A stretch of DNA of 64,000 nt. Origin: a virus. Its lineage: Duplodnaviria > Caudoviricetes. Shown here piece by piece: positions 3,112 through 59,344 of the stretch (positions within the stretch are counted from its first letter, which is position 1; each line of letters starts with the position of its first letter). A program made the translations under genes and the position numbers. Below the pieces are notes generated by a model. That model was not told the origin of the DNA. It did not search any database and saw only the letters and a program-made list of their open reading frames with translations. Location of the stretch: positions 29,724 to 93,723 of IMG/VR virus record IMGVR_UViG_3300030061_004132. One strand, written 5' to 3'.

Positions 3112-3318
3112 TTATTTATTGAAGTATTTTCTTATGTTTTTAAACCAAAATAAATCAAATATAAAATATAAAATAGTTGATATAATATTAAGAATAATAA
3201 CCAATTCTATTGATTTTAGATATTGACCAATATACCAATATGTTATAAAAAAACTAATTGGAATAGCTATAGTAAATCTCCAAATTAGTGATTTTATTAA
3301 AGCTTCTTTTCTTGTCAT
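3112..3318 (-). CDS. small two-TM membrane protein (DUF2061-like), extremely AT-rich
   Basis: TRKEALIKSLIWR N-terminus, two hydrophobic helices. Confidence 0.6.
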   Translation of the reverse strand: MTRKEALIKSLIWRFTIAIPISFFITYWYIGQYLKSIELVIILNIISTILYFIFDLFWFKNIRKYFNK

Positions 3319-3358
3319 CCTCCCCCCTTCAAGAAAATAGCTCTATATGTCAAGTCTG

Positions 3359-3709
3359 TCAAGGCTGTTTTTTTGTAAAAAATGATTCAATGTCATATTT
3401 TTTCATCAATTTTCCGAAATCAACAGGCTTAAGTCCCAAAAATCTCATAGCTTCACCCTTTGTTTTAGTGGCAGACACAGCGTATTTTAGCACTGACTCT
3501 TTTATGATATGGTTTAAGCTGTGCCAAATGGGCAAACCATACAACCTGTTACCAACAGATCGTGATGATATCTCTAATTTTAAAGCTATTATCTCTTCCA
3601 ACGATAGGTTACTCAGCATCATTTCTAATCTATCGTCAGATTTGTTCTCTTTTCTGAGGGTTTTAGAAACATTATAATGTTTGGTGGTTGACCTTCTGTT
3701 ATTATTCAC
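3359..3709 (-). CDS. putative Fis-like HTH DNA-binding protein
   Basis: C-terminal TKGEAMRFLGLKPVDFGKLMKKY resembles a Fis HTH. Confidence 0.55.
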   Translation of the reverse strand: MNNNRRSTTKHYNVSKTLRKENKSDDRLEMMLSNLSLEEIIALKLEISSRSVGNRLYGLPIWHSLNHIIKESVLKYAVSATKTKGEAMRFLGLKPVDFGKLMKKYDIESFFTKKQP

Positions 3710-30444: not shown

Positions 30445-31281
30445 TTATGACCTCGGTTGTACTTCTACTGCATCTGCACTTAGCCACTCAACATCTTTCC
30501 AACCTCCACGAGTAGGCTCCTCCCCAAACCCGATACCGATGCGTCCTTCCTTCGCCCAGAATATTTTTCCTACCTCTCCGGTGCGCTCTCCTTCGAGGAC
30601 ACAAACAAGTTCTCCCTTCTGCGGTAGCGCCTTGGTGCGCTCGACTCGCTCGTCGCACAGGGCGTTCATGTAGTCAACCCACGTCATGCCCTCTGGCTTG
30701 TTGGCTACTGCCTCAACGTTACGCAGGTACGTCCAGTGCTTGTTGCCCTCGTCGTCACGGATGCCGATGCGGGTTCCGTACTGTCCCTCGCGCTCCCAGA
30801 AAAGAATACCTTCTGTACCCACAGCAACCTTACGTCCCCGTGCGACCACGACGCGGGAGTTCGTGTGAACCGTCTTGCACCAGCGCTCTGCGTCCTCCTC
30901 AGCGCGTTGTGCTGCCCTCTCTGCGTTCTCCTGCTCAATGACCGCAAGTTCGGCCAGAGCGCCCTCCTCGCCACCCTCACGGAAGGCAAGCACCGTGCGG
31001 CTACCACCCTTGGTGAACCACTCGACCTCAACCAGCACTTCCTCGCTGGCGTCCACGACAACCTTCTTGGAGCGGTTCGGGTCTTCGGAGTGACCTACCT
31101 CAATCTCGCAGATGGTCGCGCTCTCACGGTCCCAGACGTTGGTGTACCACTGTGTCCCCCAGACGGAGAAGAACACGCGGATGGCGCGAGAAGCCTGTGG
31201 GCGTCCGTTGCCCATGCCAAGCACCGCGTCCTGAAAGTCTGCAACCGTCTCGCCCGCTTCGTTCGTATAGATGATAGCCAT
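30445..31281 (-). CDS. early protein with KOW/SH3-like repeats
   Basis: VARGRKVAVGTEG and GERTGEVGKIFW. Confidence 0.7.
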   Translation of the reverse strand: MAIIYTNEAGETVADFQDAVLGMGNGRPQASRAIRVFFSVWGTQWYTNVWDRESATICEIEVGHSEDPNRSKKVVVDASEEVLVEVEWFTKGGSRTVLAFREGGEEGALAELAVIEQENAERAAQRAEEDAERWCKTVHTNSRVVVARGRKVAVGTEGILFWEREGQYGTRIGIRDDEGNKHWTYLRNVEAVANKPEGMTWVDYMNALCDERVERTKALPQKGELVCVLEGERTGEVGKIFWAKEGRIGIGFGEEPTRGGWKDVEWLSADAVEVQPRS

Positions 31282-31818: not shown

Positions 31819-31856
31819 CATTCCCCCGCTGTTGTGTGATAACTAATAACAAGCCC

Positions 31857-35654: not shown

Positions 35655-36062
35655 CTATTTAACCGATTTCAGAACCTTGTCAACCTCTTTCCAGTTAACA
35701 AGTCCAGATACATCTCGGTCATAAGCGTCCATAGTGCCGGGATCAGCAACCATATCCTTGGCCTGCTCGTCACTAATACTATCGATACCGTGACTCCAAA
35801 GGTACGCACCAGCCCAGCGCCAACCGTCCTCATAGGTCCAGCCACCAGTAAACTTTCCATGATAGCTTCGGGCAAGTTCCCAGATTCTTTTGTGGTTTTG
35901 GGAGGTGTCCGCAACGCTAGCGAGCAACTTCCGATTACTTTCTCCACGCCGGTAGACAGCAAAACTGTCGCTCATGCAAGCGGACCAATCATGATAGCGA
36001 CACAGCCGCGCATACTCAGACAGGTTACACTTCGCTTTTGTTACATCAACCAAACCAATCAT
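35655..36062 (-). CDS. early hypothetical protein
   Basis: HDWSACMSD...YRRG. Confidence 0.65.
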   Translation of the reverse strand: MIGLVDVTKAKCNLSEYARLCRYHDWSACMSDSFAVYRRGESNRKLLASVADTSQNHKRIWELARSYHGKFTGGWTYEDGWRWAGAYLWSHGIDSISDEQAKDMVADPGTMDAYDRDVSGLVNWKEVDKVLKSVK

Positions 36063-36112
36063 TGTTCTCTCCCGTTGTTGTGTATATATCTTAATGTATT
36101 GAGCGACCCCTG

Positions 36113-36406
36113 TCAAGCATTAATGATTGTTTGAATCACATCCTGCCCCAAAGTATTTGTGCCACCGTGAGCATCGATAACCTTTTGCACCACTTCGATG
36201 GGCACCCAACCATAAACGGTGTCGGTTGGTTTATCTGGCTCCTCAGCGTATTCCATAAGCAGTTCTTCTCTCTGGGAAGGGAACCCCACCTCCACAGCGG
36301 TCCACGGTCCCACGTCGCTGCGAGGCGAACAGTAGCAAAACCCATTTGCTTGCACGCTCATAGTAAAACCATCATTACATCGAATCTGTGGGAAGTTCAT
36401 GTCCAC
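36113..36406 (-). CDS. conserved phage hypothetical protein
   Basis: CNDGFTMSVQA...SPR...VEVGFPS...TVYGWVP. Confidence 0.75.
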   Translation of the reverse strand: MDMNFPQIRCNDGFTMSVQANGFCYCSPRSDVGPWTAVEVGFPSQREELLMEYAEEPDKPTDTVYGWVPIEVVQKVIDAHGGTNTLGQDVIQTIINA

Positions 36407-36630
36407 CCTCCCGCGATGGCAACGGACGCTACCTCTTCATAGGAAGGAACACCGTCACCGTCATCATGCCACGGGCTACCTTCATTAAGGCACACACCAT
36501 GCTCGTCATAAAAGTCATAAAACCTATCGTCGTCGTTCTCTGGCTCCTTGCCTTGCCAGCATAGCTCTACGTCGATAGTGCGGCCACCCATCTTATATTG
36601 TGCGACCACTTCGGTGTGTAGTTTTGACAT
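36397..36630 (-). CDS. early hypothetical protein
   Basis: GVCLNEG motif; own promoter. Confidence 0.6.
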   Translation of the reverse strand: MSKLHTEVVAQYKMGGRTIDVELCWQGKEPENDDDRFYDFYDEHGVCLNEGSPWHDDGDGVPSYEEVASVAIAGGWT

Positions 36631-36652
36631 TGTGTTCTCTCCTGTCTTGTGT

Positions 36653-36868
36653 TTATATCTTAACGGGTTGTGTCTTGGTTGTCAAGGCATAAAAGTCTTG
36701 CCACGTCATGAAGCCTACACCATCTACCGCCATCCCACGAGGGCTGATAAATATATTCTCTTTCCTTTCGTCGTCTCTGCCTGAAACATTAAACCTCACA
36801 GACGACCACTTCTCCGTGCCCTGATCCGTCTCTTCATCAGTACCATCGGTCATAAAAATACGAAGCAT
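36653..36868 (-). CDS. early hypothetical protein
   Basis: Own promoter and leader. Confidence 0.6.
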   Translation of the reverse strand: MLRIFMTDGTDEETDQGTEKWSSVRFNVSGRDDERKENIFISPRGMAVDGVGFMTWQDFYALTTKTQPVKI

Positions 36869-36929
36869 TGTTCTCTTCTCCTGTTGTGTTTACTACTTAA
36901 CAAGTTGTTGTTTGGTTGTCAACCAGAAT

Positions 36930-37060
36930 GTGGGGGGTTCCCAACTTCCCCCCACCGAGCACAGCCTGACCTGAGAATCACTCTCACGCTTACGCAACCA
37001 CGAGATAGCTTACTGCTCGTAAGACTTACCCACTATCTCTCTGGCCTGTGCCCCCCACGG
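36930..37060 (-). ncRNA. candidate structured RNA element
   Basis: Nested stems, GNRA loops on the minus strand, G6/C6 hairpin; no ORF. Confidence 0.5.
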
Positions 37061-37069
37061 CCCTCCTTC

Positions 37070-37399
37070 TTATCCCTCAAGAGCGGAGTTTAAGGATGCT
37101 AGCATCTTTTCAACATTACGAAGTGCCCGCCCGTCCCGACCACCAACATTCCAAGTTTTAATCTGGCCTGGGCCTACGTCGTAGTAACCATAGTTCGGTC
37201 CAGACTTCCAGTTGTAGATGGTAGCGACCGAGCCATCATCAAACTTAATATCCCATTCCCAGTCTACTTTGTAGCCATCACTCTCATGAGGTTTGCCAAG
37301 CAGTTTAAGCAAATCCTGATAGTCCGCTTGGACATATCCCCGACGTGAAGTCATATTAACATTAACTTCTTCTTCATTGTGTGTGACGAAACCAATCAT
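37070..37399 (-). CDS. conserved phage hypothetical protein
   Basis: DGYKVDWEW...ATIYNWK...WNVGG. Confidence 0.75.
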   Translation of the reverse strand: MIGFVTHNEEEVNVNMTSRRGYVQADYQDLLKLLGKPHESDGYKVDWEWDIKFDDGSVATIYNWKSGPNYGYYDVGPGQIKTWNVGGRDGRALRNVEKMLASLNSALEG

Positions 37400-37454
37400 T
37401 GTTCTCTCCTGTTGTTGTGTATACATCTTAATGTGTTTTGTTCCGGTTGTCAAG

Positions 37455-37558
37455 TGTTGCGGTTTCGGGATTTGAACCCTCTCCTGATAGTGCTAGGGCA
37501 CACACCCTTTTCCTATCGGTTCCCTACCAGACTGCTGTGTGGCAGCGGGAAACCCGCA
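37455..37558 (-). ncRNA. tRNA-like RNA with no canonical anticodon arm
   Basis: Acceptor-like stem, D-loop TGGTA, GGGTTCAAATCCC T-arm; own promoter, no SD. Confidence 0.6.
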
Positions 37559-37579
37559 TAAAGTTGTTATATTCGTATC

Positions 37580-37756
37580 TTAACTGGTAACCTTTCTATT
37601 GTCAAGGCTGCCTGTTGAATCCACGGCACCGTAGAACGTAAAGACCGCTGTCTCGCAGTCCTCACAGTGGTTAGGCCACTGTGCCCTGTTCTCTTCGTTC
37701 AGCTTGCAGCCACAGACCACACACTTGAACGGGTTTGACACTGGGCGGTGGGACAT
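37580..37756 (-). CDS. 58-aa zinc-ribbon protein (not in ORF track)
   Basis: CVVCG...HCEDC. Confidence 0.55.
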   Translation of the reverse strand: MSHRPVSNPFKCVVCGCKLNEENRAQWPNHCEDCETAVFTFYGAVDSTGSLDNRKVTS

Positions 37757-37759
37757 GCG

Positions 37760-38032
37760 TCACCGCTTTTTAGGCTTAGTGACGAGTCCGTTAACCATCT
37801 TGTAGGCTTGCACGCGGCGAGAAAACTCCTCTCCGTTGCCAGCTTCGTCGTGATAGGCATGAATAATGCCACCGGACGACACGCCAATCCATCGGCTACG
37901 ACGGTTAGTCCATGCAAACTTAACCCACTGCCCGACCCTAAGTCTGGTCCGACCAGACGTAAACCTGTCAATGTTGTTATCATCAATATAGATGGTGGAA
38001 GTGAAACTCCCCAAGTTCTTACTCGCTTTCAT
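37760..38032 (-). CDS. early hypothetical protein
   Basis: LRVGQWV; own promoter. Confidence 0.65.
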   Translation of the reverse strand: MKASKNLGSFTSTIYIDDNNIDRFTSGRTRLRVGQWVKFAWTNRRSRWIGVSSGGIIHAYHDEAGNGEEFSRRVQAYKMVNGLVTKPKKR

Positions 38033-38055
38033 ATTTCCTCCTTGTGTGAAACTAT

Positions 38056-38295
38056 TTATCCTGTTGGCTGTTGACTGTCAACACTTTCTTCAAATAAATC
38101 CTTTAGCTGGTCCTTGTACATCTCTACATCATAAGACCAGCCCTCGTCTGCTGCGAGTTTGCCAACAACGTCTGCATCCCATGCGTCCCTTAGCTTGGCC
38201 TCCGCAAACAGAACCAAGTCTTTCATGTCCCAATACGAAACAATAAGTTCCGCCAAAGTCTCTCGGTTCTCAATGTTGTTCTCAAGGTCAATCAT
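38056..38295 (-). CDS. early hypothetical protein
   Basis: ORF track. Confidence 0.6.
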   Translation of the reverse strand: MIDLENNIENRETLAELIVSYWDMKDLVLFAEAKLRDAWDADVVGKLAADEGWSYDVEMYKDQLKDLFEESVDSQQPTG

Positions 38296-38708
38296 TATGC
38301 CCCCTTTTCATTCGGAGTAGGAAGGACTGGGGTTGCGGGAGGGACATGCAGGAACGCCTGCTCCTCGTCCCACTCAAGCGACACGGTATAGTTCTTGATG
38401 ATGTCCCAAGGGTTCTCGTACCAACCCCCCACGTTACCCTCTGTGGACTCTGGGTAGTCGTGACAAGCCTCCACAATAAGATAATCCTCATCGTCGAAGA
38501 CACTGACTAGTTCGCTATAGAGATTTATCAAACCGTTGTCGCTGGTGTTATACCATTTAATATGCTCTTCATAGAAAAGAACATGGCCATCCTGTGACAC
38601 GCTTGCTGGCTGTACGAACCACTCATCAAGAGTCTTCCTAGACTTTGCGCTAAGATTATCAAACACTTCTTTTTTTAATGCTACTGCGACATCACTACGG
38701 ATACCCAT
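38295..38708 (-). CDS. conserved phage hypothetical protein
   Basis: MGIRSDV...IKWY. Confidence 0.7.
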   Translation of the reverse strand: MGIRSDVAVALKKEVFDNLSAKSRKTLDEWFVQPASVSQDGHVLFYEEHIKWYNTSDNGLINLYSELVSVFDDEDYLIVEACHDYPESTEGNVGGWYENPWDIIKNYTVSLEWDEEQAFLHVPPATPVLPTPNEKGA

Positions 38709-38766
38709 TGTTAGCTCCCTGTTGTTGTATTTACAGTTTAATGAATAAAGTTTGCGCCGTCAAGTA

Positions 38767-38973
38767 TTAATCGTCATAGACTACTGCGTAGCCGTTTGAC
38801 TCGATATAGTCAATAGCGTCTGCTTCCAAAGCATCGATGGTGTCAGGATTTGTGTCATCATCTACATCTTCTAGCCAGTCCACCCAGCCAAGGCTCTCGG
38901 CGAAGCTAAGTGTCTCACCGAAGCACTCGTAAGTGTAGATTGTTTTTAACTGCCCTTGTATGATCTCTGTCAT
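38767..38973 (-). CDS. acidic early protein
   Basis: Own promoter and leader. Confidence 0.6.
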   Translation of the reverse strand: MTEIIQGQLKTIYTYECFGETLSFAESLGWVDWLEDVDDDTNPDTIDALEADAIDYIESNGYAVVYDD

Positions 38974-39030
38974 GTTTTCCCCCTGTTGTGTTTATATCTT
39001 AATCTGTCGTTTCAGTTAAGTCAAGAAGTT

Positions 39031-39396
39031 TTATGCTTCGATGGGTTCTGGGGGGATGATGACAATCGTGTTTTTGGGATCCTTCATGACCTCAGAAAAC
39101 TTCTGGGGGTTGAGGACTCTCATGTCTTCGTCAACTACGACTTGAAGAGCCGCAGCGGGTCCATAGTTTTGGCGGCGCTCTTCTGCGGCTGCGTCCACAA
39201 TAAGACCAGTAAGTTGCTTTGCTAAGTCACCAATCGCGTCAGTCAACTCTGCGGTAGCCTCTTTGCTAGAGTCTTTGTCTACTCCGCTCAAGACAAGGTG
39301 ACCCGTCTCCAAACCAGACTTAACATAAACTAAAGCGTCGGCCAAGTCCAAAACAGTCTCGACGTCCATGCTCACTTTTGCTTCACTATCTTTCAT
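39031..39396 (-). CDS. early hypothetical protein
   Basis: Own promoter. Confidence 0.6.
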   Translation of the reverse strand: MKDSEAKVSMDVETVLDLADALVYVKSGLETGHLVLSGVDKDSSKEATAELTDAIGDLAKQLTGLIVDAAAEERRQNYGPAAALQVVVDEDMRVLNPQKFSEVMKDPKNTIVIIPPEPIEA

Positions 39397-39454
39397 TGTG
39401 TGCTCCCCTTTGGAAACTACTTATTGTTTAATACTGAACCTGTCAAGAAAAAAT

Positions 39455-40095
39455 ATAAAGGGTAGGAGCTTTAGCATATGTAGTCTCCATACTTGTGACC
39501 ATCTGCGGTAGATGTATACACACCGGGGTTTAAGTCCGTTCACAAGTTTCCTCCCTGTTCTTACTATCTCTAGCACGGAACAGCACGCTGTACTATCGGC
39601 AAATGTTCTGCGTTTAATCAGAGAGCTAGCTACTCTCTCATCAAGTGCGCCTTACACTTCAACAGCTTGGTACTGCATCCATGCAAGCCCTTTCGGGACG
39701 ATTGTCAAGTTGCCCCAACAACCAGAGAGGCTTCCACCCCCGATAGTTTGACTCTGCGGAACGACCCGCTTACCAAGAAACCGTTCTTAGTAGTTTGGTG
39801 TTTACCGTTGCCGCGATGAATCAACAAGTCCGCGACTTTCATTGGCAGCACTCCAGCGGTGGTACGCTGACTCTTGCCTTCAAGCACTGAGCAATGTTCG
39901 GGACTACCACGTCCTTTAACCTGCTCCCCTTCAAGTGTAGGCCCCAGCACTTGCTTGAACAAGCTACTATCCTACAAGGGTTTTCTCTATTGTCCGATAT
40001 GGACACCCAAAGAGCGGTAAACAACTCACGGGGGTTTATCGACCGGAGAACTCGGTCACGTTAGTAATGTTAAAGATCAATAAAACTTTCTGTTT
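39455..40095 (-). ncRNA. candidate large (~630 nt) highly structured ncRNA
   Basis: Promoter TTGACA-N17-TACATT (40101-40129), no SD or credible ORF, many local and long-range helices, T-rich 3' end. Confidence 0.75.
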
Positions 40096-40140
40096 CCATC
40101 AATGTAATGTGTTGTGTATTAACTGTCAATAATATTTTTT

Positions 40141-40335
40141 AAAAAAGATGAGGGGTGTCAAGACCACCATAGCAACCTGCTTGACTTCAGGCCACAACAC
40201 AACAGAGAACAACTGCTATGGTGGAGGATACCTTTCGTAGTACCCTTAGAAAATGTAGTAGCCTACTTGACGATTATTGTTTGAATCCCAACATCGGTAC
40301 GCGGTCTACGTTACACTCCCTAATCCCTCACTTGT
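40141..40335 (-). ncRNA. candidate ~190 nt regulatory sRNA with GU-rich seed
   Basis: Promoter TTGACA-N16-TATATT (40342-40369), 5'/3' closing stem plus U6 tail, 11-bp hairpin displaying UGUUGUGUUGUG. Confidence 0.7.
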
Positions 40336-40365
40336 ATTTACAATATAACCTGTCTATAAACCCTG

Positions 40366-40593
40366 TCAAGTAGAATCTGGAAAAGAAAGAACATTATCTT
40401 TGTCGTCCATCTCGGACCCATCTTCCTCTTCGACTTCTTCGACTTCTTGTGCGTGAGCGTCTAGTTCTTTATACCTCTCCAGAATGGAGCGCACGCCCCG
40501 CGCTGCCAGAACAGACTCTTTGGCACAAGACTCTAGGTACTCTGCCATACTCTCGAAAAACTCTAAGGGCAACTCAATCGTTTCTTGATTCAT
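40366..40593 (-). CDS. acidic hypothetical protein
   Basis: Coupled (ATGA) to the ardC-like gene. Confidence 0.6.
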   Translation of the reverse strand: MNQETIELPLEFFESMAEYLESCAKESVLAARGVRSILERYKELDAHAQEVEEVEEEDGSEMDDKDNVLSFPDST

Positions 40594-41459
40594 GCGGCCT
40601 TCTCCTTTTTAATATCGTGCTCCATAATAAGATTTGAAGCCAACTGTGCAGCCTTAGCCGCACGGTACACAGCCCTCTTATCATTACGAAGCAAATCTAG
40701 CCATGAAGAAATGTAACTTTCTTGGTTTTGCATCACCTCTGGGCGTTCGATGCCCAGTTTGGCGCACAAGAACGCCGAACCCATAGAGGCAATCATCTCC
40801 TCAAGAGCGAAGGCCTCTTCGTCTTTGCCAAAGTTATCGCGGTTGAGCCTGCTTTTGTGGCCGGTACTGTGAACCATCTCTTGCAGAAGAGTAGCCCAGT
40901 AGTGGTCCGCTGTGTGAAACTGCTCTGGGTCCGGTAACCCAATGAGATCAGTGTGAGCTTTGTACCACGCGCTGTCCTGTCCGTGCAGAACTTTAGCACC
41001 ATAGCCGCCCAAAATAGCCGAGCATCGTTCATAACCGACACTTGGGTCTTGAGGACAAGACTCAACCACTGGGGGGTTCTCGCACTGCTCCGCATTGTAG
41101 ACACGGTAGTACCGCAAGAAAGGAATCTTCTGGACGGTGCCATCCCCGTTATCCTTGTCAAACATATTCCAGAATACGATTGGGGTCCAGTTCTTGGCCT
41201 CATCGGACTTAATAGTGATTTTAGCCTTCTTAGCTTGATTCCAAGTGATCCAACGAGAGTCGTCGTAACCAGACGCCCAGAGAAGCGGAACATTAATACC
41301 TGTGTAGGTCTGCCCCTCCTCCGGGTCCATCGAGGTCATGTTAAAAGGAAGTCCTGCCATCGCACCATTCTTCCAAGGCTTACTCCACGGGGGAGTGCCA
41401 GCCTCAAGAGCAGTAATGATGCGGTCAGTAACCATTTGATATACATCGACTTTAGCCAT
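40590..41459 (-). CDS. ardC: ArdC-like antirestriction/ssDNA-binding protein
   Basis: YQMVTDRII..LE.G.PPW.KPW; Y.GIN..LL; W.T.NQ; ..HSTGHKSRLNR; EE.IA..GSAFLC. Confidence 0.88.
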   Translation of the reverse strand: MAKVDVYQMVTDRIITALEAGTPPWSKPWKNGAMAGLPFNMTSMDPEEGQTYTGINVPLLWASGYDDSRWITWNQAKKAKITIKSDEAKNWTPIVFWNMFDKDNGDGTVQKIPFLRYYRVYNAEQCENPPVVESCPQDPSVGYERCSAILGGYGAKVLHGQDSAWYKAHTDLIGLPDPEQFHTADHYWATLLQEMVHSTGHKSRLNRDNFGKDEEAFALEEMIASMGSAFLCAKLGIERPEVMQNQESYISSWLDLLRNDKRAVYRAAKAAQLASNLIMEHDIKKEKAA

Positions 41460-41692
41460 TTGCCTCTCCTTACTTACAATAACATATTAACAAAGTGTCG
41501 CTTAGCTGTCAAGCGACTCTGTGGGTTCCCAATACCAGTGGTCTTTATGTTCAGAGTAGCTATCGGACTCGATATACTCTAACCACTGTTCTTCTAGTTC
41601 AAGTTCTTCGTTGTCTTCCGGGTCGTTGTTCATGACCAATCTCCTCTTGCTTTCAAAATAAACTTAACCGACACACTTTGGTGCGTCAAGGA

Positions 41693-42868
41693 TTAATCTT
41701 TACCAATCGCTAGAATCTTCTCATTCGTCTGGAAGTACGGGTTCTTTGCGTAGTAGGGTGTAGTGATCCAGAGTCGCTGGCACTTAGAGGCGACCGGCTT
41801 TGCTGCACACATGTCCGTAAGAACAATATGCCCATCGAAGTTACGCTGGTTGACCCACTTGGTAGGGGGGTTGAAGTCGGTCCCGCCGTACCTGACGCGA
41901 GTCCAGTCTTTAGTCTCTCCCTTACGCCAGACATATACAGAGTCCTCACATACCTCGCTGTCGAAAGGAACGACTGTGAAGGTCGCTAGCTTCGCAAACT
42001 TGTTCAGCAGGGAAAAGAATGTTTTAAGCATCTCGTCATTCACGGAACCAGACTGGTCGATGGAGATGGCGATGTTTGCCACCCTCTTCACCCTCTTTGC
42101 GGGCCACTGATAGGGTGCTCGCTTGTTTACTCTACGAACCGTGCTCTGCTTGTTGCTAGCCTGCGATGTCTTGATGAAGTAACGCAGAACCTTCGCAGGG
42201 TCAATCGTTTTGCTGATAGACTTCCTGAGTTTATTCCTGACTTCGCTTGGCACGGAGCCATAAGATTTATTCTCTTTCTCACACTCTTGGACTGCTTCGG
42301 CGATTACCTCTCGCAATCGTTCCTCGACCACATCCTTCATTCCTTCGGGCACCTCGCCCCACCCGTCATGGCTGTCGAGAGTGTCAGGGAGACTGTTGCC
42401 TCCCTCGCCTTCGCCGTCGTCAGACTCCTCTTGCTCCTGCTGCTCCTGCTTCAGCTTTTCGAAATACCACTCGGCAGCCATGCCAGAGGGCCAACCTTCA
42501 AAGTGGCCCACGCCTGGAATACAGCCCTCTTGCGGTAGCTTATCTGCGATGTGACCATTGATGGCTAAGTCCGCAGCTACGTTCCACAGCTTTGTCATAC
42601 CCTCTTCGGGGAGTCGCGTAGTGACGTGCTTAAAGAGGAGGTGGTAAAACTCGTGCATGAGCACACCAGTGCGCTCAACATCTGTTAGTCCTTCCATCCA
42701 AGTCGGGTTGTAAAGCATCTGTAGCTTACCCGTCTCTTTGTCGGCCCAGACCCCAGCAGTGGGGACCGCCGTGCTTGGCTTCTTGCTGACCCTGCGGGAT
42801 ATTGCCGCGAAGAACGGCTCGTCCAGCAGAAGTCTATGTGTGTGCCTGTTAAGATCAAACTTGGACAT
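41693..42868 (-). CDS. DUF2201-type metallopeptidase + vWA protein
   Basis: VLMHEFYH, WNVAADLAIN, SIDQSGSV, GGTDF, LTDM. Confidence 0.88.
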   Translation of the reverse strand: MSKFDLNRHTHRLLLDEPFFAAISRRVSKKPSTAVPTAGVWADKETGKLQMLYNPTWMEGLTDVERTGVLMHEFYHLLFKHVTTRLPEEGMTKLWNVAADLAINGHIADKLPQEGCIPGVGHFEGWPSGMAAEWYFEKLKQEQQEQEESDDGEGEGGNSLPDTLDSHDGWGEVPEGMKDVVEERLREVIAEAVQECEKENKSYGSVPSEVRNKLRKSISKTIDPAKVLRYFIKTSQASNKQSTVRRVNKRAPYQWPAKRVKRVANIAISIDQSGSVNDEMLKTFFSLLNKFAKLATFTVVPFDSEVCEDSVYVWRKGETKDWTRVRYGGTDFNPPTKWVNQRNFDGHIVLTDMCAAKPVASKCQRLWITTPYYAKNPYFQTNEKILAIGKD

Positions 42869-42926
42869 GCTTGCCTCCTGTTGTGTTTATACTATAGCTC
42901 ATGCGGTTGAAGGTGTCAACCAACTA

Positions 42927-44027
42927 TTAGTTAATCGACACGCCGCTGAGTAGCTCGACCATAACGTTCTTAACACTAGACCCACTAGAGGTCGTAGCGT
43001 TGTGGAAGTTATGACTATTCTGCTTGGCAACAGAACCATCACCCTCCGTTGTCTTTCCAAGGGTGTACCACAAGCGCATTGCGACCTCAGAAGGCAACTT
43101 GGCGAAGTAGTTGGCGAGATTTCCAACTTGCTCGTCGGTGAGAACTGACTTCACATAAGAACTGTTTTCGATACCGTCAACCATAGCGGTGTGCTGATTA
43201 ATGTCCCAGTCATCGGTCAGGTGGTACATACCCCCATCCACAATATCCTCGACCGTTACAATCTTTTCGTAGGTTGAGACAAAATCAGTGAACGCCAAGG
43301 CACCCTCAAGGCCAACAAAGCCACATGCAAGGTCACGAATCACGTTCAAGTTTGACTTCGGAGAGTTCATAAGTCCACTCCGTGTGATTACTTGGTTGAG
43401 ACGGTCCCAAGAACGACGACTTGGGTAGACCTTATTGGGTTCAAAGTCATCCGTATGCTCAAGGTGGCCACGGTTGTTGTTAATAAAGTCCCAGATAATC
43501 GGTGCCACCTCAGCCTTTGCCCACAACAGCCAGTCCTCAATCGAAGGCTCAAGGTCGTAAACAATCCAACGATCAAGAGCCGCTGGGTCCATCTCGCCAA
43601 CCTGATAGTGTGCGGCGTGCTCACCACCATTCACGGCAGAAAAGATGATGGTGCCGGGATGAAGATGCCACCCGTTCAACTTGCGGGAGTCCCCAAGTTC
43701 AAAGATAGACTGGCGGACTTCGTGGGTGCCACGGTCCACCTCATCAAGAAACAAGAGACGAGGGTTGTCGCAGCAGTCCTTGAACCAGTCGGGTGGGTTC
43801 CAAGTAGTAGTTTCCTCCTCCATCTTTGGTAGGCCGAGAATATCACCCTCGGTCATCTGGCTAATGCGCCGCTCAACTACCTGCAAGCCGAACTTCTCGG
43901 CGTACTGGTAGACGACTTGGCTTTTGCCAACACCGTGGCGTCCCCGAATCATCACGGAATAGTTTTCCGCGTCAGTGTTGATGACGCTGTTGATGACAGT
44001 ATCAAAGGTTTGAAAATCAATAGACAT
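42927..44027 (-). CDS. MoxR-like AAA+ ATPase
   Basis: GRHGVGKS Walker A, LFLDEVDRG Walker B, MDPAALDR, PSRRSW. Confidence 0.88.
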   Translation of the reverse strand: MSIDFQTFDTVINSVINTDAENYSVMIRGRHGVGKSQVVYQYAEKFGLQVVERRISQMTEGDILGLPKMEEETTTWNPPDWFKDCCDNPRLLFLDEVDRGTHEVRQSIFELGDSRKLNGWHLHPGTIIFSAVNGGEHAAHYQVGEMDPAALDRWIVYDLEPSIEDWLLWAKAEVAPIIWDFINNNRGHLEHTDDFEPNKVYPSRRSWDRLNQVITRSGLMNSPKSNLNVIRDLACGFVGLEGALAFTDFVSTYEKIVTVEDIVDGGMYHLTDDWDINQHTAMVDGIENSSYVKSVLTDEQVGNLANYFAKLPSEVAMRLWYTLGKTTEGDGSVAKQNSHNFHNATTSSGSSVKNVMVELLSGVSIN

Positions 44028-45401: not shown

Positions 45402-45457
45402 ACTATAACTACTCTGCTAACTTGCGTCAACAACCTTTTGTCATATAAATATAAGAG

Positions 45458-45541
45458 TGCCCAAGGCGGGACTCGAACCCGCAAGCCCAATGGGGCGACA
45501 GATTTTAAGTCTGTTGTGTATACCTATTCCACCACTTGGGC
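45458..45541 (-). tRNA. tRNA-Leu(TAA)
   Basis: Cloverleaf with long variable arm; anticodon loop CTTAAAA. Confidence 0.93.
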
Positions 45542-45545
45542 AAAG

Positions 45546-45622
45546 TGGTACGCCCTAGAGGATTCGAACCTCTGACCCTCGGCTTAGAAGGCCGATGCTC
45601 TATCCAACTGAGCTAAGGGCGC
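45546..45622 (-). tRNA. tRNA-Arg(TCT)
   Basis: Cloverleaf; loop CTTCTAA; encoded CCA. Confidence 0.95.
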
Positions 45623-45629
45623 AAAATCC

Positions 45630-45821
45630 CTAAGCTCTTAACTTGTCGAGGTGTTGCCTCTGTTCCTCGTACTTTCCAAGATTAGCCTCGACGTAATCTT
45701 TTACCTTCAATAGTTTATCAAGATAATGATATTTTGTCCAGCCATCATTTCGTGGACTTTCAACTTCTATAATCCATCGCTGTAGCTGTCCGATAACTTC
45801 CGTCTCAGAAAATCTGTTCAT
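45630..45821 (-). CDS. hypothetical protein
   Basis: SPRNDGWT motif; SD GGGAG. Confidence 0.6.
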   Translation of the reverse strand: MNRFSETEVIGQLQRWIIEVESPRNDGWTKYHYLDKLLKVKDYVEANLGKYEEQRQHLDKLRA

Positions 45822-46098
45822 CCTACTACTCCCGTAAAAAGAATAACGTAGAAGCCCAAAAGAGCCATCATAGAATATTCAGCGTAATCCATACTCCCTC
45901 CATACATAAAATATTAACGTCTTGGTTACAGGCTGTCAAATCTTATTTGCCCTGACCCCGATACTTTTTTCGGTAACCCTTCGGAACAGTGCCGTTTGAG
46001 TTGAGGGCTTTAAATTTTGTCCTCTTCCCATTTCCAATGCTTGTTTTCTTACCAAGACCGTGTTTAGTGGCCCTCTTATTATTGCCTTTAGCCATTTT

Positions 46099-46290
46099 TT
46101 ACTCCTTATAATAGTTAGAAAATCCCATAAAGGTTGGTGCCCAAAGCCCAACAAAAAGTGCTAACCGCTCAATATGAGCCGCGTCTACACCACCTGTGTT
46201 CCAGATAACAACTGAGCCTGCAATCGACACAATTGTTGCCACTAGAAACCCATTCGAGATTTTATTATTCTTTTCTAAATACTTCATCAT
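46099..46290 (-). CDS. small membrane protein
   Basis: ERLALFVGLWAPTF. Confidence 0.6.
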   Translation of the reverse strand: MMKYLEKNNKISNGFLVATIVSIAGSVVIWNTGGVDAAHIERLALFVGLWAPTFMGFSNYYKE

Positions 46291-46338
46291 TCCTCCTGTT
46301 ATTGTAATAACCTATTTACATTTCTTGTCAACTAAAAA

Positions 46339-46411
46339 TGAGTCTTCAGGGACTCGAACCCTGAACCTACGGATTAAAAGTCCGGTGCTCTACCAATTGA
46401 GCTAAAGACTC
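46339..46411 (-). tRNA. tRNA-Lys(TTT)
   Basis: Cloverleaf; loop CTTTTAA. Confidence 0.95.
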
Positions 46412-46417
46412 GTAAAG

Positions 46418-46494
46418 TGGTGGGCCTACTGGGACTTGAACCCAGGACCGCAGCTTTATAAGAACTGTGCTCTAACCACCTGAGCTATAGGCCC
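46418..46494 (-). tRNA. tRNA-Ile(TAT)
   Basis: Cloverleaf; stem CAGTT/AGCTG, loop CTTATAA; encoded CCA. Confidence 0.9.
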
Positions 46495-46706
46495 ATAAGG
46501 GTGCCGGTGGTTATCTCTGAACACATGAGACAGTGACCGGAGTATGTCTCGCTTAGGTTCTATGTGCGGTCGTTCAATAACATAATAGTTAAAATTTATT
46601 TGTCAATCAGAATAGTTACATTCGTATTTTCCGTAAACGTAACCTACCCAGAACGCTATAAAGTGCGTTCCCAACATAAGACATAAACTCAAATGACACC
46701 TCCTAT

Positions 46707-46928
46707 TTACATAATATAATTACCATAACCGTTTTCACTAGCACACTCTCGCGAACAATATCCGTGATACAAAATGTGCTCAGGATCTTTTTTGGCTCCA
46801 GACCATTTGGGTAACGACTTACCGCAAGTCGTACAAATCGTAAACTTCCCATACAGAAGACGATTGTCTTCGTCCATCTGTCCGTGCCAAGGCTTCCAAG
46901 CGCCATCGCTCATTATCTCCCCCACCAA
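46707..46928 (-). CDS. small zinc-finger protein
   Basis: CTTCG...YCSREC. Confidence 0.55.
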   Translation of the reverse strand: MVGEIMSDGAWKPWHGQMDEDNRLLYGKFTICTTCGKSLPKWSGAKKDPEHILYHGYCSRECASENGYGNYIM

Positions 46929-46937
46929 TATAAATTG

Positions 46938-47011
46938 CGCCCCTTACTGGATTTGAACCAATGACACGCGGATTAACAGTCCGCTGCTCTAACCAACTGA
47001 GCTAAAGGGGC
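46938..47011 (-). tRNA. tRNA-Asn(GTT)
   Basis: Cloverleaf; loop CTGTTAA. Confidence 0.93.
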
Positions 47012-57203: not shown

Positions 57204-58769
57204 TCACTCAGTTTCCACTATGGCGAAATTAGTCGTTAATAGGGTTGATGCAGCGGACGCTGCGTTTTGTAAGGCACACCTTGTGACCTTAACAGGGTCT
57301 ATTACACCAGCTTCAAACATATTAACAACTTCATCTTGCACAAAATCATAACCCGTCTCGGGACCTTCGTCAACAATCCTCGACGTAATTATGTCTGGTG
57401 ACAGCCCGGCGTTTTGGCACATCTTCCTAAGGGGCTCGTACACTGATGACATAATAACATCAACACCGACCTGTTGTTCAGGGTTATCTACAGTAATTTC
57501 CAAGTCTTTAGATGCCCTTATGAGCGCTATTCCACCGCCGGGAACCATTCCCTCCATCCTGGCCGACTTAACCGCCTCTAGTGCATCTTCTACTCGGTGT
57601 TTCTTCTCAATCATTTCAACCTCAGTTGCAGCACCGACTTTAATGATTGCTACCCCGCTGGCCAGTCGCGTCACCCTTTCCTGGACCAACTCCGCCTCGC
57701 GGATAGAATCTGTTTGGCCCAATACAGCTTTAAGGGTCTCGATTCTATTATCGATCTCCTCCAGATCGCCCTTGCCTCCAACAATAATTGTTTCATTCTT
57801 TTTGATGAAAATTCTTTGAGCAAGCCCCAGGTGTTCGAGTTTGGCATTCTTTAATTTGATAGAACTGTCAATATACTTTGCGTTTGTGGCAACACAAAGA
57901 TCCATCAAAATGTTTTTCCTCTCCTCACCATACTTGGGTGCTTTAACAGCAACGACCTTCATGGAGCCGCGCATTGAATTCATAATCAGTGCCGCTAGTG
58001 CCTGCCCCTCGATCTCAGGCGAGATAATAACGAGGGCCCTGGCTTCTCTGGCTACCACCTCTAGGATTGGCAGCAAGTCCTGTAGGTTGTCAACCTTCTC
58101 CTCAGTGACCAAAATTAAAGGATCGTCATATTTAACTGATGCCGATCTCTCGTCAGTTATGAATGCTGTCGCCGCGTAACCAGAATCAAACCTAAAACCC
58201 TCAACCAAATCAAGGGTAGTATCAATAGACTTGGCCTCTTCCACCGTTACTGAGCCATCTTTCCCGGCACAGCTAATTGCCTTAGCAACTAAAGCGCCTA
58301 TGTGTACGTCGTTGTTAGAAGAGATGGTGGCAATGTGACGTATGTCGTCCTCAGTTCTGATTGGAGTAGACATCTCGGCCAAACGATCAACCAACCCTGC
58401 CACAGCCTTATCTATCCCCCTCTTTAGCTCTATGGGGGATACTCCCGATAGAACATACTTTTGTGATTGTTCTAAAATAGCCCTTGCAAGCACAGTTGCG
58501 GTAGTAGTTCCGTCACCCGCCAAAGAGTTGGTTTCTTCGGATGCCTGTTTGAGAATTTGTACCGCTGCGTTTTCGAAAGGATCTTCCAATTCAATAAATT
58601 TTGCAACCGTAACTCCATCTTTAGTTATGATCGGATTTTTATTTTTTGCAGCCAAGATAACATTTCTGCCCCTCGGACCTAGTGTAGATGCGACATTGTC
58701 AGTCAGCTTTTTGACACCACTTAAAATTTTGCTTGTTAAAATATTACCGTCACTGTAAATCTTGCTCAT
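57204..58769 (-). CDS. groEL: chaperonin GroEL
   Basis: TLGPRGRNV, ITKDGVTVA, AGDGTTTATVLA, GVIDPVKV; start MSKIY at 58769; no GGM tail. Confidence 0.95.
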   Translation of the reverse strand: MSKIYSDGNILTSKILSGVKKLTDNVASTLGPRGRNVILAAKNKNPIITKDGVTVAKFIELEDPFENAAVQILKQASEETNSLAGDGTTTATVLARAILEQSQKYVLSGVSPIELKRGIDKAVAGLVDRLAEMSTPIRTEDDIRHIATISSNNDVHIGALVAKAISCAGKDGSVTVEEAKSIDTTLDLVEGFRFDSGYAATAFITDERSASVKYDDPLILVTEEKVDNLQDLLPILEVVAREARALVIISPEIEGQALAALIMNSMRGSMKVVAVKAPKYGEERKNILMDLCVATNAKYIDSSIKLKNAKLEHLGLAQRIFIKKNETIIVGGKGDLEEIDNRIETLKAVLGQTDSIREAELVQERVTRLASGVAIIKVGAATEVEMIEKKHRVEDALEAVKSARMEGMVPGGGIALIRASKDLEITVDNPEQQVGVDVIMSSVYEPLRKMCQNAGLSPDIITSRIVDEGPETGYDFVQDEVVNMFEAGVIDPVKVTRCALQNAASAASTLLTTNFAIVETE

Positions 58770-59344
58770 GATACCTCCATATTTTCTGTATGATTTGGCA
58801 AGGTCAAAACACCCACAGAGAACCCGCGCAAGCCAGCATCTCCTTCCCACGCGCCTTCGTTCATTCTGTAACCCTTCTTTATGCTGCTTTGTATAATTTT
58901 AACTCCCAAGTCGGGGGAGTTCTCCGTAGGACAATACGCTAAATAAGTGTGCCCATACGAGCCATTCACCACCTCATCGTCCTCCATCGTTTCCTTGTCA
59001 TTCAACTCAAGTTTGCGCCATCGCTGTATGACATGCCATCTACCAGGAGTTAGCGGTGGGGCCTCGTCCTCAACAATGGCACAATAAGATATGTCTCCAC
59101 CCAATTTTTCTCGGATTGCTTCCAAGGCACTCCAGGGTTTATCGCGATCATAAACATTTGCTCGCTTCCACCAATCAAGGTCTTGACCAGCGTAGCGTGA
59201 CACTGAGCTTTCGCGAACGTCATCCGCTATACTAAGACACCACATTGCACAAAGCGTGCAACATGGCAAGTTTTCTTTAGTGGCGATATGGTTTAATGCG
59301 CCACCTTTGTTCAGGGCAGTCCAACCCTTTATATCTATGTTCAT
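58766..59344 (-). CDS. putative Cys/His peptidase (NlpC/CHAP-like)
   Basis: PCCT...IQRW...GHTYL. Confidence 0.5.
   Translation of the reverse strand: MNIDIKGWTALNKGGALNHIATKENLPCCTLCAMWCLSIADDVRESSVSRYAGQDLDWWKRANVYDRDKPWSALEAIREKLGGDISYCAIVEDEAPPLTPGRWHVIQRWRKLELNDKETMEDDEVVNGSYGHTYLAYCPTENSPDLGVKIIQSSIKKGYRMNEGAWEGDAGLRGFSVGVLTLPNHTENMEVS

Follow-up and report, generated by a model that had tools for sequence, protein, structure and literature searches.

A candidate anti-leader RNA from a covarying RNA family of uncultivated marine phages

The early shut-off of phage genes is known to proceed through proteins, such as RegA and RegB of phage T4, and through changes in the transcription machinery. 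Phage-encoded RNAs that act by base pairing include DicF and the c4 antisense RNA of P1/P7, and trans-encoded RNAs also take part in type I toxin-antitoxin pairs such as tisB/istR-1 and shoB/ohsC. To our knowledge, the targets reported to date for phage small RNAs are host genes or single phage operons. Here we analyze a small-RNA element on the minus strand of a 64,000-nucleotide (nt) stretch of viral DNA (the window), which corresponds to bases 29724–93723 of the 93.7-kb IMG/VR virus record IMGVR_UViG_3300030061_004132. CheckV estimates the completeness of this record at 26%, which suggests a very large phage. An earlier note on the sequence had proposed the element as a GcvB-like RNA directed against the shared leader of the early genes. 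We find that the element is, with high confidence, a member of a new, covariation-supported and previously uncatalogued family of structured RNAs from uncultivated marine phages.

The closest described systems are summarized here. GcvB silences translation-enhancing, ACA- or CA-rich sites beside the Shine–Dalgarno sequence (PMC3879156), and it is conserved across Gram-negative bacteria, including marine Vibrio (PMC9409037). In T4, early protein synthesis is brought to an end by the endoribonuclease RegB, which cleaves the GGAG motif in early Shine–Dalgarno sequences, and by the translational repressor RegA, which competes for many early mRNAs with the 30S subunit (PMC3014915). PeSLs are composite terminator/promoter motifs located between small early genes, and they mediate insertions and deletions (indels) in T4-like phages and lie at the edges of indels and gene swaps (PMC4122927, PMC2839356). 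Phage and prophage small RNAs, AgvB and others, act by base pairing, and AgvB interferes with the GcvB circuit (PMC12197685). In the latter text, a 2025 review of phage small RNAs, a term search finds no “leader”, and “early” once, in a reference title. A search of full-text literature by topic and by strings from the loop strand of the element (the seed, see below) found no such RNA or circuit, although motif lists in supplements could hold it; none of the matches listed for the seed strings concerns phages.

A covarying RNA family in marine contigs

The element is read from the minus strand, and on sequence grounds it is a real small-RNA gene, predicted to be transcribed by the host RNA polymerase. 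Its parts are collected in Table 1. What the earlier note states on the promoter, stems, loop and U6, with the coordinates it gives, is correct on the minus strand; its GU-rich loop is UUGUUCUCUGUUGUGUUGUG at 40212–40193 (−). The same promoter scan finds 18 promoter-like sites in 36000–44000, compared with 7.7 ± 2.4 in shuffled sequences. All open reading frames (ORFs) that overlap the element are short. The minus strand has two, of 28 amino acids (aa, with a TTG start) and 27 aa, and the plus strand likewise two, of 30 and 51 aa. None of them is conserved, in agreement with the earlier statement that the ~190 nt hold no credible ORF. RNAfold of the ~195 nt from 40335 to 40141 gives −65.9 kcal/mol, compared with −51.1 ± 4.2 in 200 shuffles (z −3.52, 0/200 as good). 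The minimum structure includes P1, the long hairpin, the short hairpin and an 11–12-bp P4 around the GU-rich strand, so both stems noted earlier are present in a fold that beats every shuffle.

The family was collected by a metagenome scan in which only the two 11-nt arms of P4 were fixed, with 30–45 free letters between them. The scan returned 35 contigs, and 34 of them contain the same loop, GUUGUUCUCUGUUGUGUUGUGGCC[Y]GAAGUCAAGC[R]GGU, some with small GU insertions at its 5′ side. The seed within this loop is unchanged in 32 of the 34 contigs, whereas L015 and L029 each differ at one identical position. The core shows a median identity of 0.97 between contigs, with a minimum of 0.92, while the flanks remain at the aligner’s baseline of ~0.75 and only 10% of 231 pairs reach 0.9. 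Because the core is conserved while the flanks are at baseline, the conservation reflects more than recent common descent. Each contig carries one copy. In the window, the covariance model (CM) R1 matches 40133–40339 with 153.8 bits, and the 93.7-kb record contains no second copy. The stretch is present, wholly or in part, in 20 sequencing runs from 15 studies, nearly all of them labelled marine, seawater or aquatic.

Outside these contigs, no member is found in GTDB species genomes, where the seed/P5 word has 0 matches, or in IMG/VR beyond the window’s own record (0 matches of the 19-nt seed word). A degenerate P5 word matches twice in IMG/VR, both times in GC-rich coding sequence without a CM match. 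A word from the non-coding region downstream of the element matches in IMG/VR only G001, a 35%-complete record that is also the only IMG/VR relative of the ArdC-like neighbour of the element (89% amino-acid identity), and the 121-aa neighbour protein has no relatives in IMG/VR. A blastn search of 39380–40420 against the GenBank phage collection gives no match. The cmscan comparison with Rfam, proposed earlier, yields no relevant family at gathering score in the whole window, and none in the loci of 11 relatives (70,114 bases); with E values up to 10 on 39300–40500, the sole match is snoR124 (E 5.3). In addition, no tRNA-like elements are found near the RNA in the loci of 13 relatives.

The members share a common architecture. 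A TTGACA/−10 pair is located upstream of the element in 34 of 35 sequences by regular expression, with unconvincing or distant matches in L015 and L026; L031 is cut by the contig end and is not counted as having a promoter. The predicted 5′ end of the RNA lies slightly upstream, by a few nucleotides, of a purine-rich strand (GUGAGGG, AAGAGGG, GAAAGAGGUU or GAGAGAGAG), which pairs with a pyrimidine-rich strand just 3′ of the invariant UCUUGACA. The 5′ domain between the P1 strand and P3 measures 40–184 nt and differs wholesale among members. It is followed by a hairpin AGGG.../...CCCU and then by the invariant stem-loop. P2 occurs in 9 of 30 distinct members, those with a 5′ domain of 115–120 nt, and is absent or replaced in the rest; L043 has the same flanks as the window but lacks P2. 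The tail GGUCUUGAC and the P5 loop are invariant across 30 of 30 aligned members. A pseudoknot between the P5 loop and the 3′ tail is possible from this complementarity, which gives no covariation signal because it is invariant.

The paired regions show strong signs of compensatory change. The structure was supplied to R1, and in the resulting CM alignment of 31 distinct rows, which leans towards the supplied structure, 95.2% of the cells are paired, compared with 89.0 ± 0.5 in shuffles and 36–55% when the partners are slid. Changes on both sides of a pair are found in 65 cells against 24.3 ± 5.4, and 0/500 shuffles contain as many. Such changes affect four of the eight pairs of P1, four of the seven pairs of P3 and one of the four pairs of P5; the latter, the third pair of P5, is C–G in 15 rows, U–A in 15 and U–G in one. 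The lack of variation in P4 follows only from the search pattern, in which the two arms were fixed. RNAalifold on a MAFFT alignment recovers P4 and P5 only, while P1 and P3 needed the CM alignment. G–U pairs are frequent, and they correspond to A–C mismatches on the opposite strand. The covariation together with the many G–U pairs therefore indicates an RNA read from the minus strand.

When 30 distinct members are folded individually with RNAfold, P1 is present in 29 and P4 in 18. An alternative fold, in which CAUAGCAG pairs with the seed portion CUGUUGUG and a longer hairpin around P5 replaces P4, is observed in L011, L012, L014, L017, L021, L025, L027, L031, L034, L036, L041 and L044. This predicted fold may point to a conformational switch by which half of the seed becomes hidden.

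The conservation pattern also bears on a reading of the opposite strand, as a plus-strand protein gene (the 51-aa ORF at 40218–40373 after the leader-like CACAACACAACAGAGAACAAC) or as a decayed inverted cassette. The plus strand does read as a leader followed by an ATG and an open frame. However, its coding part coincides with the variable 5′ domain of the RNA, 40–184 nt of sequence unrelated among members, and therefore no conserved protein is encoded there. Moreover, no plus-strand promoter was found, a canonical GGAG Shine–Dalgarno sequence is missing, and the conservation pattern and the G–U pairs point to the minus strand. We regard this reading as hardly credible. The 51-aa ORF was rejected on the length-variable 5′ domain and the minus-strand G–U pairs, and the decayed inverted copy of a promoter cassette, which the earlier note had offered as its alternative, is refuted by the conservation and the strand-specific covariation.

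Table 1 Coordinates of the element, its parts and the next promoter in the window
Feature	Position	Strand	Description
Small-RNA promoter (sigma70)	40342–40369	−	TTGACA 40369–40364, 16-nt spacer, TATATT 40347–40342; 11/12 consensus
Small-RNA body, ~190–195 nt	40141–40338	−	5′ end ~40338–40334 and 3′ end at U6, both predicted
Closing stem P1, 5′ strand	40325–40331	−	GUGAGGG; RNAfold
Closing stem P1, 3′ strand, and U6	40141–40154	−	CCCUCAU 40154–40148, U6 40146–40141; RNAfold
Long hairpin P2	40247–40322	−	Optional variable domain; RNAfold
Hairpin P3	40225–40246	−	AGGGUACU/GGUAUCCU; RNAfold
Stem P4, 11 bp	40164–40224	−	CCACCAUAGCA 40224–40214 with UGCUAUGGUGG 40174–40164; surrounds the seed loop and hairpin P5
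Anti-leader seed, 22 nt	40192–40213	−	GUUGUUCUCUGUUGUGUUGUGG; invariant in 32/34 contigs; pairs with early start sites in silico
Hairpin P5	40176–40191	−	CCUG 40191–40188/CAGG 40179–40176, loop AAGUCAAG; family covariation
CUUGACA tail	40156–40162	−	Complementary to the P5 loop GUCAAG 40185–40180; also reads as a −35 hexamer
Next promoter	40101–40129	−	TTGACA, 17-nt spacer, TACATT; drives the ~640-nt non-coding region; edge of the module missing in G001

The loop strand and the start regions of early genes

The leader word ACACAACAG occurs seven times in the window, compared with 0.66 ± 0.78 expected, and 0/100 shuffles reach this number. Six occurrences are on the minus strand, before the ATG codons at 31281, 36868, 38973 and 42868, at 31829–31837 and inside tRNA-Leu, while the only plus-strand occurrence, the seventh, belongs to the element. 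The leaders quoted in the earlier note before 34151, 36868, 38973, 31281 and 42868 are all present. Within the seed, GUUGUGUUGUGG is complementary to the CA run of the leader, and GUUGUUCUCU is complementary to (G)GAGAGAACAA(C) between the Shine–Dalgarno core and the AUG.

Candidate start sites in the window were defined as an ATG with a Shine–Dalgarno-like word and an ORF of at least 30 aa, and the early zone as the minus strand of 29.5–46 kb; the gene calls behind these target counts are crude. Predicted seed duplexes of −18 kcal/mol or better are found at 18 of 41 early-zone start sites and at 2 of 86 sites elsewhere in the window, in line with the earlier estimate of about 20 early mRNAs. 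When the opening energies of both partners are included, −12 kcal/mol or better is reached by 15/41 and 0/86 sites, respectively, so the enrichment of predicted targets at early start sites is strong. With a cruder gene set, −20 kcal/mol is reached by 10 of 25 early-zone and 1 of 140 other sites (Mann–Whitney p 5e-4). RNAcofold of the full RNA with 75-nt targets gives a modest result (−8 kcal/mol or better in 8/41 early-zone sites vs 0/86 elsewhere). This calculation was set aside because RNAcofold can let a loop enclosed by P4 and P1 pair with a second molecule only by opening these stems, and the estimate from duplex plus opening energy was taken as fairer. Two initial duplex scans of the whole genome, one using the 39-nt loop and one a G–U-tolerant run length, were too noisy for use.

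The related contigs show the same complementarity. Among 34 relatives, −18 kcal/mol or better is reached at 192 of 239 distinct same-strand start sites (median −21.6), compared with 1 of 23 opposite-strand sites. For 80 sampled sites of the relatives, with a fresh shuffle for each site, shuffled seeds score −12.7 ± 0.35 against −20.8 observed (0/100). Each of the seed nucleotides 1–21 takes part in 58–97% of the duplexes; position 14, the sole variable one, has a usage of 66%, among the lowest. A seed buried in the predicted fold, or homologous loci that keep the leaders and lose the GU-rich segment, had been named as grounds for giving up the antisense proposal. In the predicted fold the seed is accessible, with an opening cost of 4.7 kcal/mol and a mean unpaired probability of 0.62 compared with 0.40 for the whole RNA (30 members), and the GU-rich segment is near-invariant in the 34 related contigs, whose genes carry the same leader. 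The invariant loop is, in silico, an accessible antisense of the shared early leader.

Complementarity of this kind could also accompany another job of the RNA, such as protein binding, modification of RNA polymerase in the manner of the HK022 put RNA, or action as a decoy, with the match to the leader stemming from an inverted-leader origin or from low complexity. The elaborate conserved scaffold and the position directly after an early promoter in nearly all members fit such a role, the invariant complementarity of loop and tail suggests a tertiary fold, and the seed is a GUUGU repeat that scores well when reversed. On the other hand, the antiparallel complementarity extends over 21 nt, covers both the CA run and the phage-specific Shine–Dalgarno/spacer sequence, and recurs at those 192 of 239 start sites; moreover, a decoy that captures a leader-binding factor would be expected to look like the leader itself rather than like its complement. 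We consider this explanation unlikely, though not negligible.

The seed has an 11-nt identity with the R1 region of E. coli GcvB, and GcvB is described as conserved throughout the Gram-negative bacteria, marine Vibrio among them (PMC9409037). The GcvB circuit is also known to be disturbed by phage small RNAs such as AgvB (PMC12197685). These points would fit a host-directed GcvB mimic that represses host mRNAs with CA-rich starts, e.g., those of amino-acid transporters, during takeover. We find such a mimic improbable, as the 5′ half of the seed, GUUGUUCUCU, fits the GAGAGAACAA(C) spacer, which is specific to the phage, all 21 nt match in the phage leaders, and the element is found in no genome of the GTDB species set. 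The element is not a GcvB homologue either, since the GcvB model (RF00022) gives no CM match even at E values up to 10. The earlier description as GcvB-like thus holds in silico for the accessible GU seed, the shared 11-nt word and the CA/Shine–Dalgarno targets, and fails in the CM and locus comparisons.

Proposed repression in trans and a possible local role

A trans-acting global repressor of early translation is the best-supported mechanism, and we infer it from the sequence with roughly even confidence. The scaffold, composed of P1, the optional P2, P3 and P4 with the inner P5, would display the invariant 22-nt GU-rich strand as an antisense of the standard start region found on most early one-promoter-one-gene cassettes. 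The RNA would pair in trans with many early mRNAs and block 30S binding, and the ~20-bp RNA–leader duplexes could be cut by RNase III or RNase E. Early protein synthesis would then fall with the accumulation of the stable RNA, which would make the latter a counterpart of T4 RegA/RegB. The silencing itself, and the role of “master switch” given to the RNA in the earlier note, are likewise what we infer.

Contigs from RNA libraries are compatible with expression of the element, as weak evidence, since presence in a library is not transcription. Contigs from four libraries of four studies contain the core 40153–40227/31 with 0–1 differences (95–100% identity). They are 151–381 nt in length, the core is flanked by other family variants, and they carry no strand or end information. 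The look-up in metatranscriptomes suggested earlier therefore recovers the core in four RNA libraries, while the contigs define neither discrete transcript ends nor the strand. The discrete transcript proposed for the window has its promoter in place and a predicted 3′ end.

Several observations weigh against the global repressor. The simple terminator scan does not flag 40141–40160, because U6 follows a long-range closing stem and not a compact hairpin, so the 3′ end is a predicted one. A T-run of at least five follows the closing stem in only 7 of 30 members (the window, L043 and the L022 group). In 23 of 30, the invariant TTGACA is followed at 16–17 nt by a −10-like hexamer and a normal leader, including the weak AAAAAT of the window and L043; with these weak cases excluded, the 3′ end of the RNA lies inside a canonical promoter of the next gene in 21 of 30. 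Many members may thus read through, being 5′ leaders rather than free small RNAs. The 381-nt RNA-library contig extends past the promoter, and the library contigs could represent DNA carry-over or read-through. Moreover, the minimum-energy folds of 12 of 30 members pair seed nucleotides with the 5′ arm of P4 instead. The seed is of low complexity: with the crude gene set, the reversed seed scores −15.4 against −15.9, and 1/200 whole-seed shuffles is as good. All members were retrieved by one strict P4 pattern, and none with a different seed was found. The early-type promoter would produce the RNA simultaneously with its targets, and one RNA gene facing dozens of promoters would pose a problem of stoichiometry. 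In addition, the module is missing at the corresponding locus of G001, the closest relative, which indicates that the module is dispensable or mobile.

The genes next to the RNA raise the question of a local role. A gene starts 52–62 nt after P4 in 24 of 35 sequences, and 20 of these genes encode a conserved hydrophobic peptide of 46–52 aa with a recurring LLWGAWGL-KF-FSN-like core, e.g., L044 3609–3764. These peptides have no Pfam match. A 240–241-aa PF17338 (GP88) protein often follows the peptide, and neither of them adjoins the RNA in the window. The window and 10 other sequences have no gene within 130 nt downstream, and the window has U6 and another promoter there instead.

From this arrangement, the RNA could belong to the 5′ portion of a longer transcript or be paired functionally with the gene that follows, its loop masking the adjoining start site, as in a leader switch or a type I toxin-antitoxin-like pair. 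The overlap of the 3′ end with the next promoter and the adjoining peptide genes make such a cis-acting, local role a serious rival, to which we nevertheless assign a low probability. The adjoining start sites pair well with the loop (−20 to −31 kcal/mol), no U-run is present in 23 of 30 members, and the alternative fold hides part of the seed in 12 of 30. However, the 11 sequences without a gene within 130 nt do not fit it, and a separate promoter for the next gene is normally contained in the 3′ end of the RNA. The adjoining start site is the best match in only three of the nine long contigs that have one, and ~80% of the same-strand start sites match; that the adjoining gene is rarely the best match argues against a purely local target. 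Furthermore, L035 and L013/L023 have the same downstream gene and different 5′ domains.

Locus variation, genomic setting and comparison with known systems

The locus at 40096–40345 is found in three states, with the long form of the RNA in the window and L019, a short form with a 47-nt 5′ domain between the same flanks in L043, and no RNA in G001. In G001, a single promoter after the 75-aa gene leads directly into the downstream non-coding region. The ~240 nt that are missing correspond to the small RNA and the second promoter, and the indel boundaries lie inside the two promoters. Such promoter-located boundaries of the three states are what cassette recombination would be expected to produce. 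No copy is found by the CM in the 62.9 kb of G001, a fragment that stops short of the early array.

For the GP88-like neighbours, 140 homologues were found. The CM finds nothing in 80 IMG/VR loci of GP88 homologues (identity 66% or lower, 510 kb), where the best E value is 1.6. The closest of these loci lies in G002 (163 kb, 90% complete), whose GP88 homologue is 66% identical. The entire G002 record gives no CM match, and CA-rich leaders are absent from the 7.7-kb stretch inspected. Within the few cases compared, the RNA appears from sequence to occur together with the leader system.

The three states at one locus, the indel boundaries in promoter sequences and the reassortment of 5′ domains and downstream genes around a conserved core would also suit an element that acts at the DNA level only, i.e., a PeSL-type promoter/terminator cassette, recombination joint or promoter element whose RNA has no function; PeSLs do mediate indels in T4-like phages (PMC4122927). 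We regard this as very improbable. The compensatory changes and the many G–U pairs fit only an RNA from the minus strand, recombination homology offers no explanation for the invariant 22-nt single strand in the loop, and mobility and RNA function are mutually compatible.

The neighbour genes of the element are on the minus strand. Upstream are genes for a MoxR-like AAA protein, a DUF2201 metallopeptidase/VWA protein, the ArdC-like protein and the 75-aa ORF, and downstream a ~640-nt stretch without credible ORFs precedes an array of small genes. This promoter-driven stretch, 39450–40095 (−), is 92% identical to G001 over 538 nt, and its flanking protein genes are clearly more diverged from G001 than the stretch itself. 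A run of N in G001 lies opposite window ~39487–39557, and this part of the stretch is not comparable. Rfam gives no relevant match to the stretch at E values up to 10 (39300–40500 scanned), and it is probably a large structured RNA.

Further non-coding sequences adjoin the RNA in other contigs. In L022, L028, L030, L032, L037, L039 and L045, a U-run follows the RNA, and the next gene is then preceded by a conserved non-coding stretch, ~190 nt after the RNA, which L038 carries in a diverged form. It may represent a second small RNA. A conserved non-coding element of ~100 nt is located upstream of the RNA’s promoter in L011 (~150–250). The same element is fused directly to the RNA in L026 (~3300–3400), without the promoter and without the 5′ strand of P1, and ARAGORN detects no tRNA in the element of L011 and L026.

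Elsewhere in the window, a one-piece transfer-messenger RNA (tmRNA) with the tag ANNNNHFELALAA and five tRNAs (Leu-TAA, Arg-TCT, Lys-TTT, Ile-TAT and Asn-GTT) are located at 2540–2893 (−) and 45457–47011 (−), and a GroEL homologue at 57204–58850. The GC content changes from ~0.39–0.43 in 1–26 kb to 0.46–0.56 in 28–44 kb, the zone of the CA-leader cassettes.

Together, these observations lead us to propose, tentatively and with slightly less than even confidence, that a lineage of widespread marine phages has standardized its early start regions and carries one “universal anti-leader” RNA. Genes brought in by recombination would automatically join a genome-wide early regulon under RNA control, an RNA equivalent of that of T4 RegA/RegB, and the regulator itself would be a mobile cassette that is gained, swapped or lost among close relatives. 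If this is true, a single RNA directed against a common leader built into dozens of the phage’s own mRNAs would be a new regulatory design, it would explain why near-identical CA-rich leaders are kept on unrelated genes, and the pair of leader and RNA would be a compact switch for synthetic biology. The promoters and start signals look sigma70- and Shine–Dalgarno-like, so the proposal is testable in E. coli-type reporters. The family itself would add a well-supported covarying RNA, present in many ocean samples, to the catalogues.

The phage RNA shares features with several known systems. By description only, it resembles the PeSLs, as one locus may have the module, a replaced form or none, with boundaries in promoters; the PeSLs are described as short and gene-flanking, whereas the element is a covarying RNA of 125–250 nt with an invariant antisense loop. 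AgvB, DicF and c4 differ from it in their targets, which are genes or a small RNA of the host, or one phage operon. As in type I toxin-antitoxin pairs, the small RNA adjoins a gene for a hydrophobic peptide of ~50 aa with a pairable start region in 20 of 35 family sequences. This is not so in the window, where no ORF lies within 130 nt; moreover, the two genes are co-directional and the complementarity is to a generic leader.

The likeness to T4 RegA and RegB lies in one early-expressed phage factor that acts on a short signal in many early start regions. RegA and RegB have no sequence relation to the element and are proteins with loosely defined sites, while the RNA would pair with a standardized leader of ~20 nt. 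GcvB, an Hfq-dependent RNA, is described as having a similar length of ~200 nt and a single-stranded G/U-rich seed that targets CA-rich sites beside the Shine–Dalgarno sequence of many mRNAs, and the R1 region of GcvB from E. coli K-12 has the 11-nt word UGUUGUGUUGU in common with the phage seed. In contrast to GcvB, the seed of the phage RNA is located in an internal loop of a closed multi-helix scaffold. The RNA is encoded by a phage and, unlike the chromosomal GcvB locus that is divergent from gcvA, has no gcvA neighbour, being flanked by the ArdC-like protein, the 75-aa ORF and a further non-coding region. Particularly, its predicted targets are the phage’s own early genes, and its seed extends over their Shine–Dalgarno/spacer sequence.

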